Below, piece after piece: positions 26,776 to 26,811 of a stretch of DNA of 64,000 nucleotides; position 1 is the stretch's first letter, and every line of letters begins with the position of its first letter. The stretch is from NCBI RefSeq assembly GCF_044324785.1, contig NZ_CP172127.1; one strand, written 5' to 3'. Position numbers and translations under genes: made by a program. The notes below the pieces were generated by a model. It was not told where the DNA came from. It was given only the letters and a program-made list of their open reading frames with translations, and ran no database searches. Origin of the DNA: Escherichia coli. Lineage in GTDB: Bacteria; Pseudomonadota; Gammaproteobacteria; Enterobacterales; Enterobacteriaceae.

Positions 26776-26811
26776 CTGCTATTGTTGCTAGCCGGCTAGC
26801 AACAATAGCAG
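26776..26811. repeat. 36-bp perfect palindrome CTGCTATTGTTGCTAGCCGGCTAGCAACAATAGCAG
   Basis: Read directly; 18-bp arms with no spacer; about 45 bp downstream of the stop of the 607-aa ORF; not followed by a T-run on either strand. Confidence 0.85.

Follow-up and report, generated by a model that had tools for sequence, protein, structure and literature searches.

A conserved palindrome of opposed TGCTA units as a candidate replication origin of an AlpA-DUF3987 integrative island in Escherichia coli

What role does a long perfect palindrome play in the non-coding DNA of a genomic island? The question is raised by a stretch of 64,000 nucleotides of an Escherichia coli chromosome (the window, i.e., the whole of the DNA that was analyzed), which is 100% identical to strain SMS-3-5. 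The sequence CTGCTATTGTTGCTAGCCGGCTAGCAACAATAGCAG, located at window positions 26776-26811, is a spacer-less perfect inverted repeat with 18-bp arms, as an earlier note on this DNA had described. It lies in the integrase-proximal module of an integrative island adjoining clpA, and this module also encodes a DUF3987 helicase and an AlpA-family protein. The palindrome is a cis-acting DNA site of this island, and it is most likely a minimal iteron cluster composed of four YTGCTA units, two per arm, with the arms opposed. By analogy with known systems, we consider the chances about even that it is the replication origin or helicase-loading site of the island, or the core of one; in this comparison, the closest precedent is the origin of SaPIs, the pathogenicity islands of Staphylococcus aureus. 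No description of a TGCTA palindrome element was found in the searchable literature.

The palindrome is the longest perfect short-range inverted repeat across the 64 kb. It gives a single match in the window at up to 3 mismatches, and each of its arms matches the window only at this position. No match was obtained in any of 100 shuffled versions of the window, and the chance expectation of an 18-bp-arm palindrome, estimated arithmetically as ~64000/4^18, is roughly 1e-6 per window; the earlier view that the repeat is non-random is supported by these figures. Folding of both strands, which the earlier note had proposed, yielded a hairpin on each that was far better than those of shuffled sequences. 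The RNA folds of 121-nt contexts of the two strands have energies of -43.6 and -36.7 kcal/mol (z = -4.8 and -5.2, respectively), and DNA folding of a 56-nt context gave a hairpin of -17.6 kcal/mol (z = -5.9). On extrusion of the palindrome, the GCCGGC centre would form the loop.

Several simple identities of the palindrome were considered and rejected. An intrinsic terminator is discounted, as it was in the earlier note, since there is no T-run after the palindrome on either strand, a terminator scan of the window did not call it, and a T-run is present at only 1-2 of nine oriented homologous sites (absent in 7-8). The combined promoter and terminator scan gave a signal at background, with promoters no better than shuffles. 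A search of Rfam at 26776-26811 returned no covariance-model match at E <= 1, which argues against a known RNA family. A repeat family, the end of an insertion sequence (IS) or of a miniature inverted-repeat transposable element, and a repetitive extragenic palindromic (REP) element were rejected because the palindrome has one copy in the window and a single locus in each of 158 E. coli genomes, so that the search for other copies suggested earlier returned a single-copy element. A 57-aa open reading frame over the palindrome (26684-26857, minus strand), which overlaps the stop of a neighbouring 607-aa gene by ATGA, has no counterpart in strain E2348/69 and was rejected as coding. The shorter palindrome reported to precede the 36-bp one is present (CATGCATG, 26762-26769); it is not kept in related islands, was therefore rejected as a functional part and is probably incidental.

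The family to which the palindrome belongs has a common architecture, TGCTA-N4-TGCTA, a centre of 0-6 nt and TAGCA-N4-TAGCA, with a unit consensus of YTGCTAH and a 9-bp period. The centre is usually 4 nt long and usually not self-complementary, and it varies in both sequence and length. The roles listed in the earlier note (operator, cruciform-prone site or RNA hairpin) formed a generic list; a protein-binding or cruciform site is still a live option, but the list overlooked the four TGCTA units at their 9-bp period and the link with DUF3987 and AlpA.

The window-type site was identified in 158 of 5426 complete E. coli genomes and was always chromosomal. The two places recorded per genome are, we infer, one palindrome matching both strands. 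In the most divergent of the 158, the flanks differ by five substitutions or indels and the 36 bp are unchanged. A homologous module at serX or serW is present in about 75 further genomes (E2348/69, O104:H4 and 2013C-4991 among them) and shows ~60-70% identity to the window in the palindrome region. The palindrome of these serX/serW-type islands reads CTGCTAATTTTGCTAA-(TGG or CCA)-TTAGCAAAATTAGCAG. In comparison with the window form, three positions are altered on both arms together (compensatory double changes), the centre differs in length and sequence, and the stem is lengthened to 21 bp through CCCCC/GGGGG. The earlier note had allowed that the palindrome might be absent from all homologous islands; it is instead kept there through compensatory changes. 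No step in conservation was seen at the palindrome among the E. coli islands, where identity is ~60-70% on both sides, so that the conservation boundary anticipated in the earlier note is missing at this level, whereas in distant relatives the palindrome does mark the edge of the core module beside the cargo. As a side observation, the 3-nt loop is TGG in E2348/69 and 2013C-4991 and its reverse complement, CCA, in the near-identical AHB30 (L003 8045-8049 vs L004 8034-8038), which by its sequence appears to be a small "flip" inversion of the kind that hairpins promote.

Loci of more distant relatives were fetched for eight representatives of the 607-aa protein family (27-33% identity), which were chosen by the protein alone. 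All eight contain the module YfjJ-DUF3987-AlpA with the ~600-aa gene divergent from AlpA, and in all eight the stop of the ~600-aa gene is followed after 11-58 nt by a long palindrome that is perfect or nearly so (e.g., TTTCCCCTCTGCTACACCTGCTACA|TGTAGCAGGTGTAGCAGAGGGGAAA in L099). In the window, the palindrome is 42 nt downstream of the stop of the 607-aa open reading frame (26854-26856, minus strand), and a palindrome trails the stop of the 607-aa homologue in all homologous loci examined except one. The distant palindromes are located between the core module and variable cargo, which includes restriction-modification, SLATT/GAP1 and GTPase genes. TGCTA is kept at the four positions in these loci, even though they were selected through homologues of ~30% identity.

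Covariation was assessed in an alignment of 11 sites from loci chosen by protein homology, comprising 19 pairs. In this alignment 92.8% of the cells pair, 12 of the 19 pairs have changed on both sides, and the level of pairing was reached by none of 500 shuffles. Among the 154 cells of the 14 core pairs, there is not one G-U or one-sided change. Outside the core pairs, the few T-G mismatches fall on one or the other strand with respect to the genes and are consistent with simple transitions. A coordinated variant is seen in L098 and L101, where both outer units are TGCAA. Sequence-specific recognition by a protein is indicated, because the units are invariant and coordinated. In L097 (4793-4832), all four units have been switched in a coordinated manner to GGCTA instead of TGCTA; gene calling split the DUF3987 gene of this locus (1165-2664) into two pieces (231 and 137 aa).

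A pattern scan for the four units with free spacers was carried out in one genome per species, covering 100,044 species. The scan found 69 sites, against a chance expectation of ~2-3 by our estimate, which assumes equal base frequencies. A DUF3987, AlpA, YfjJ or 607-aa homologue lies within a few kb of 43 of the 69 sites, and a DUF3987 gene is present at 36. YfjJ homologues were detected at 12 of the 43 linked loci. The linked sites belong mostly to Gamma- and Betaproteobacteria, with an additional Parachlamydiales primase-DUF3987 fusion. Among them, 31 have fully complementary N4 spacers, and 31 have a 4-nt centre. Fifty distinct palindromes contain 26 different spacer sequences, and their arm-to-arm spacer identity is 80-100%, compared with 30-54% when arms are re-paired between loci; the observed identity was reached by none of 2000 shuffles. 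The 26 unlinked sites are mostly without spacer symmetry and look like chance occurrences or other repeats. A similar pattern scan of IMG/VR gave 16 matches, five of which are linked to the same module genes. The element in the Parachlamydiales metagenome-assembled genome (MAG; L026 5228-5259) has 3+3 units with spacers that are not complementary, and it is located 12 bp after the stop of a 789-aa gene encoding a fusion of an archaeo-eukaryotic primase and DUF3987.

The placement of the site differs among loci. It lies 12-30 bp past the DUF3987 stop in eight loci, just upstream of the DUF3987 start (10-60 bp) in about eight and 100-290 bp upstream of alpA in about six, and a further class in the species scan has the site after the 600-aa gene. 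No alpA was detectable near the site in Halomonas-type loci. The variable placement within the module favours an autonomous cis site over a terminator or the operator of a single promoter. A reverse test was performed with ten IMG/VR loci fetched using the DUF3987 protein alone; the window DUF3987 protein as an IMG/VR query returned no related loci, and a closer query gave these ten. The element is located 45-90 bp upstream of the DUF3987 start in all ten and is their best-conserved non-coding block, being a perfect palindrome in two and an imperfect one in eight.

The K-12 cryptic prophage CP4-57 carries an imperfect version, CCTGCTATTTCCGCCATTAATAGCGGAATAGCC, between alpA and yfjI (L080 5908-5942). 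In CP4-57 and its IMG/VR relatives (L106-L113), the element precedes the ribosome-binding site of yfjI by ~45-60 bp and is again the top-conserved non-coding block. The imperfect form of CP4-57-type loci indicates that the units are conserved even without a hairpin. Long arrays of the same 9-bp unit, YTGCTACAC, were observed in Alistipes MAGs (L029, L030, L034 and L050), where they bracket a gene for a 393-aa AAA_25 (RepA/DnaB-like) helicase-like ATPase. For example, L029 contains 2 direct and 7 inverted copies upstream of the AAA_25 gene (1556-1640) and 9 direct and 2 inverted copies downstream of it (2985-3078), together with a separate CCCTAAACT 9-bp array (1500-1550). Pairing is thus not the sole constraint on the element, since the CP4-57 forms are imperfect and the Alistipes arrays direct.

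The candidate partner of the site is the DUF3987 protein. The model of the window protein (predicted local distance difference test score, pLDDT, 78) combines a P-loop ATPase core with a predicted C-terminal winged helix of helix-helix-helix-strand-strand topology at ~residues 407-469. In a Foldseek comparison with the PDB, it matched MCM subunits best (E down to 7e-6), with ORC and RuvB next. These matches and the winged helix agree with the literature, in which DUF3987 proteins are described as MCM-related superfamily 6 replicative helicases with a winged helix-turn-helix at the C terminus (PMC4889955; PMC5862659). Helicase activity in the 5'-3' direction is proven for a PriCT-DUF3987 protein, which partners a mobile-element PrimPol (PMC11724360), and the DUF3987 "prim" gene of the int-alpA-prim satellites known as PICMIs (phage-inducible chromosomal minimalist islands) is required for satellite replication (PMC10803314). 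An origin is defined in none of these four studies.

If the palindrome is the origin of the island, excision driven by AlpA and the integrase would come first. The MCM-like DUF3987 helicase would then recognize the units, probably through its C-terminal winged helix, assemble head-to-head on both arms and open the DNA, during which the palindrome could extrude as a hairpin or cruciform. For the proteobacterial versions, extrusion is suggested by two features in combination: the spacers keep strict Watson-Crick symmetry, and changes in the length of the centre are tolerated.

In SaPI Rep helicases, a winged helix binds penta- or hexanucleotide iterons, with at least two per side in opposite orientation, and the origin is directly 3' of rep (PMC9371898). 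SaPIs are inducible islands that encode an AAA+ initiator-helicase, and the present island resembles them and other phage-inducible chromosomal islands in being an integrative element with its own AAA+ helicase and, by prediction, a C-terminal winged helix. Short units (5-6 nt), at least two per side and oppositely oriented, are also shared, as four TGCTA at a 9-bp period here. The SaPI origin adjoins the helicase gene, immediately 3' of it, and the present site is 12-30 bp 3' of that gene in eight loci. When this adjacency is applied to the whole set, DUF3987 is found at 36 of 69 sites, often 12-60 bp away, and at 10 of 10 helicase-chosen loci; in the window the distance is 2.2 kb, and placement relative to the helicase gene is variable here, unlike that in SaPIs. 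Other differences are that the 6-12 iterons of SaPIs are split by an AT-rich segment, whereas 2+2 units with a 0-6 nt centre are usual here, that complementary spacers make the present site a near-perfect palindrome, and that the helicase is DUF3987 (MCM-like) rather than a member of the SaPI Rep families.

Site II of the simian virus 40 (SV40) core origin contains four pentanucleotides as two inverted pairs in a perfect palindrome, on which a double hexamer assembles head-to-head. The present element shares with the SV40/polyomavirus site II the four pentamers arranged as inverted pairs within a perfect palindrome, but the SV40 unit is GAGGC at a 6-bp period instead of TGCTA at 9 bp, SV40 has a flanking AT tract and early palindrome where no flanking element is conserved here, and the origin-binding domain of a superfamily 3 helicase takes the place of an MCM-like AAA+ protein with a predicted winged helix. 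Iteron plasmids (pSC101, P1, R6K and pPS10) likewise have short repeated units that are read by their own initiator, with inverted copies beside rep that can also be autoregulatory; unlike the present units, plasmid iterons are 17-22 bp long and for the most part direct, and the initiators that bind them are of the RepA type (WH1-WH2) and recruit host DnaB. The ssiA and ssiB sites of RSF1010, like other hairpin single-strand initiation sites, are palindromic origin segments in which each strand presents an identical hairpin so that priming is symmetric, in a plasmid with an element-encoded primase and helicase. Those sites are, however, read by the RepB' primase and stand beside separate iterons, while the primase partner is inconstant across the loci studied here and direct-repeat arrays replace the palindrome in Alistipes.

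Two families of islands were compared in terms of gene content. The recently described PIME islands (Pseudomonadota integrative mobilizable elements) form a separate family, defined by int, alpA, a repA/repC replicase, trbJ/trbL and an IncP-like origin of transfer (oriT); they have repA iterons, and their oriV is immediately downstream of repA (bioRxiv 10.64898/2026.01.12.698999). Membership in this family was rejected for the window island, which has no repA/repC or trbJ/trbL in its annotated region and no IncP-like oriT, and whose module consists of int, alpA, DUF3987 and YfjJ. PICMIs are marked by genes for an integrase, AlpA and a DUF3987 "primase/helicase" (PMC10803314), all of which are co-located in the window, making the island a PICMI-like or AlpA-DUF3987 element; unlike true PICMIs, it has neither fis-adjacent integration nor small size.

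A number of observations weigh against an origin at this site. In the window, 2.2 kb separate the site from the helicase gene, and the site stands directly past the stop of another gene, a position that is typical of RNA 3'-end hairpins as well. The arms, with a centre of 0-6 nt, have no AT-rich unwinding segment between them, the flanks are just ~8% more AT-rich than the locus average, and no k-mer, nick site, DnaA box, iteron or other motif is enriched in the flanks of the palindromes. The palindrome of the CP4-57 clade is imperfect, so that hairpin formation is not universally required. The primase gene of the window island is truncated by IS elements, and for this reason the window copy may be inactive. 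In Alistipes the TGCTA unit adjoins a different helicase family, and the binder of the palindrome may therefore not be DUF3987 itself. Finally, a paralogous O157-type module (30% identical) lacks the TGCTA palindrome. It contains a different hairpin with 13-bp arms, TAGTCTCCTCTGC...GCGGAGGAGACTA, and one TGCTA in the apex (L005 2463-2493), located 24 nt after the yfjI stop without a T-run; this hairpin could be the site that belongs to the helicases of that clade.

The invariant units, which imply recognition by a protein, have a bearing also on an operator at the DNA level, to which AlpA, a DUF3987 autorepressor, the 607-aa protein or YfjJ would bind so as to regulate the module's transcription or shield the module from the cargo. 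Many loci carry the site upstream of DUF3987 (10-60 bp from its start) or of alpA (100-290 bp), and such rep-upstream positions are occupied by the autoregulatory inverted repeats of iteron replicons (pSC101/P1-type Rep). We nevertheless regard this explanation as doubtful, given that at least 20 loci have the site past a stop codon with no promoter target nearby downstream, that Halomonas-type loci lack a detectable alpA near the site and that the promoter scan did no better than shuffles. In addition, the sole defined AlpA site, GGGACGN5GGTA of Pseudomonas aeruginosa (PMC7969949), is unlike the palindrome, and a binding element of this type is absent from it, though AlpA proteins differ and the island's own AlpA may still bind. 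Operator and origin roles are not mutually exclusive. Nicking of the site by YagK/YfjJ or a helper relaxase, as at a rolling-circle double-strand origin or an oriT-like hairpin, is very unlikely. HUH enzymes and relaxases commonly use inverted repeats beside or around the nick site, and the Gp2-like gene belongs to the module. IncP-like oriT repeats are known from PIME islands (bioRxiv 10.64898/2026.01.12.698999). However, the loop or centre is conserved in neither sequence nor length, no conserved nick sequence or candidate flanking motif was found in the loop or flanks, YfjJ is present at 12 of 43 linked loci vs 36 for DUF3987, and Pfam support for a Rep-like identity of the YfjJ-like protein is below threshold.

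An RNA-level role, in which the palindrome forms a hairpin in the 3' untranslated region of the 607-aa (or helicase) mRNA and serves as a terminator without a U-tract, a stabilizer or an RNase III processing site like lambda sib, seems less likely again than an operator. The site is 11-58 nt past the stop in all 607-aa-type loci and 12-30 nt past the DUF3987 stop in eight others, its RNA fold is very stable, and a perfect stem of 16-21 bp is long enough for RNase III; a stable hairpin soon after a stop codon is what Rho-independent terminators and lambda sib-type hairpins have in common with it. Unlike these, the element has no U-tract, has an AT-rich stem with invariant units and is placed upstream of genes in other loci. 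The missing T-run in 7-8 of nine oriented loci and the lack of an Rfam match point in the same direction, as do the 14 core pairs without a G-U or one-sided change in 154 cells and the few outer mismatches, which have no consistent strand relative to the genes. Moreover, the units are kept where the hairpin is broken (CP4-57 clade) or replaced by direct arrays (Alistipes). A chance or neutral palindrome, e.g., a by-product of template switching, draws on nothing more than the instability of inverted repeats in general and the inverted loop (TGG vs CCA) as a sign that intrastrand events happen here, but this reading can be considered effectively refuted from the sequence comparisons by the expectation of ~1e-6 per window, the element's conservation in Gamma- and Betaproteobacteria and further afield, in which the units are invariant and the arms covary, and the divergent strain with five changes in its flanks and none in the palindrome.

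A replication origin at the palindrome, if confirmed, would be a compact, palindromic and cross-phylum iteron origin of a self-loading mobile-element helicase. A bolder proposal, which we put forward tentatively and rate as improbable, is that it represents an undescribed class of minimal structured bacterial origin, in which a near-perfect palindrome of ~32-40 bp with four pentamers and a cruciform would allow two DUF3987 hexamers to load head-to-head without a separate initiator or AT-rich element. Such a class would be a mobile-element analogue of the double-hexamer licensing of eukaryotic and viral origins, and it would extend from CP4-57-like islands and the large pathogenicity islands of E. 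coli to PICMI-like satellites and to elements of several phyla. Many genomic islands, including K-12 CP4-57, the serW/serX pathogenicity islands of enteropathogenic and Shiga toxin-producing (EPEC/STEC-type) E. coli, marine PICMI satellites and carriers of defence genes, are headed by AlpA-DUF3987-integrase modules, and a defined origin was found for none of these in the searchable literature. The signature of 32-40 bp can be searched as a pattern and offers a marker for the annotation of islands and for distinguishing intact from decayed copies, such as that of CP4-57. It also provides a cheap experimental handle and a compact model for the loading of MCM-like helicases in bacteria. Were the element to act in regulation or at the RNA level instead, it would still be among the most conserved non-coding features of the island family.

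The features of the window island are listed in the table.

Table. Coordinates of the palindrome, its units and the neighbouring features in the window
Feature	Position	Strand	Remarks
36-bp perfect palindrome	26776..26811	no strand	candidate origin / iteron site
TGCTA unit 1, outer, left arm	26777..26781	+	preceded by C
TGCTA unit 2, inner, left arm	26786..26790	+	preceded by T
Palindrome centre GCCGGC	26791..26796	no strand	
Unit 3, TAGCA, inner, right arm	26797..26801	-	TGCTA on the minus strand
Unit 4, TAGCA, outer, right arm	26806..26810	-	
Tyrosine integrase gene	30831..32039	-	island end beside clpA
DUF3987 gene	29042..30607	+	MCM-like AAA+ helicase with C-terminal winged helix (predicted); proposed palindrome binder
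AlpA-family helix-turn-helix gene	28766..29026	+	Phage_AlpA Pfam E = 7e-19
607-aa orphan gene	26854..28677	-	conserved core gene, divergent from alpA
AT-rich 1.2-kb region containing the palindrome	25645..26853	no strand	no conserved open reading frame
YagK/YfjJ ("inovirus-type Gp2") gene	25081..25644	-	weak Pfam matches: REP_ORF2-G2P, YagK_YfjJ_C
TOTE-type archaeo-eukaryotic primase domain gene	23852..24877	-	truncated by IS insertions

The 607-aa gene is a core gene of this island subfamily and is always divergent from alpA. Its product gave no match in Pfam, NCBIfam, PADLOC (defence systems) or PHROGs and no sequence match in the PDB. The AlphaFold2 model of the protein is all-alpha and confident (pLDDT 84.5), with no fold match to the PDB in Foldseek. 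The family is very small: an exhaustive search of representatives gave 44 among 1.84 billion proteins.

The island is interrupted at window positions 21717-24057 by an ISL3-family transposase gene and an IS66 tnpB, which cut short the TOTE-type primase gene; in strain 2013C-4991 this gene is intact and measures 2.36 kb (L002 3755-6115). At the opposite end, in the gap between the integrase gene and clpA (32040-32500), ARAGORN found no tRNA where serW would be expected as the integration target. Rfam matches in this gap are weak, with RtT at 43.9 bits against a gathering score of 45 and MicC, Thr leader and CRISPR-DR4 well below threshold. The ~250 bp upstream of the YfjJ-like gene (25645-25900) are ~85-94% identical between islands, compared with just 40-70% for the remaining intergenic DNA of the same islands. 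Judged from this conservation, the stretch could be a leader, a promoter or a small RNA.

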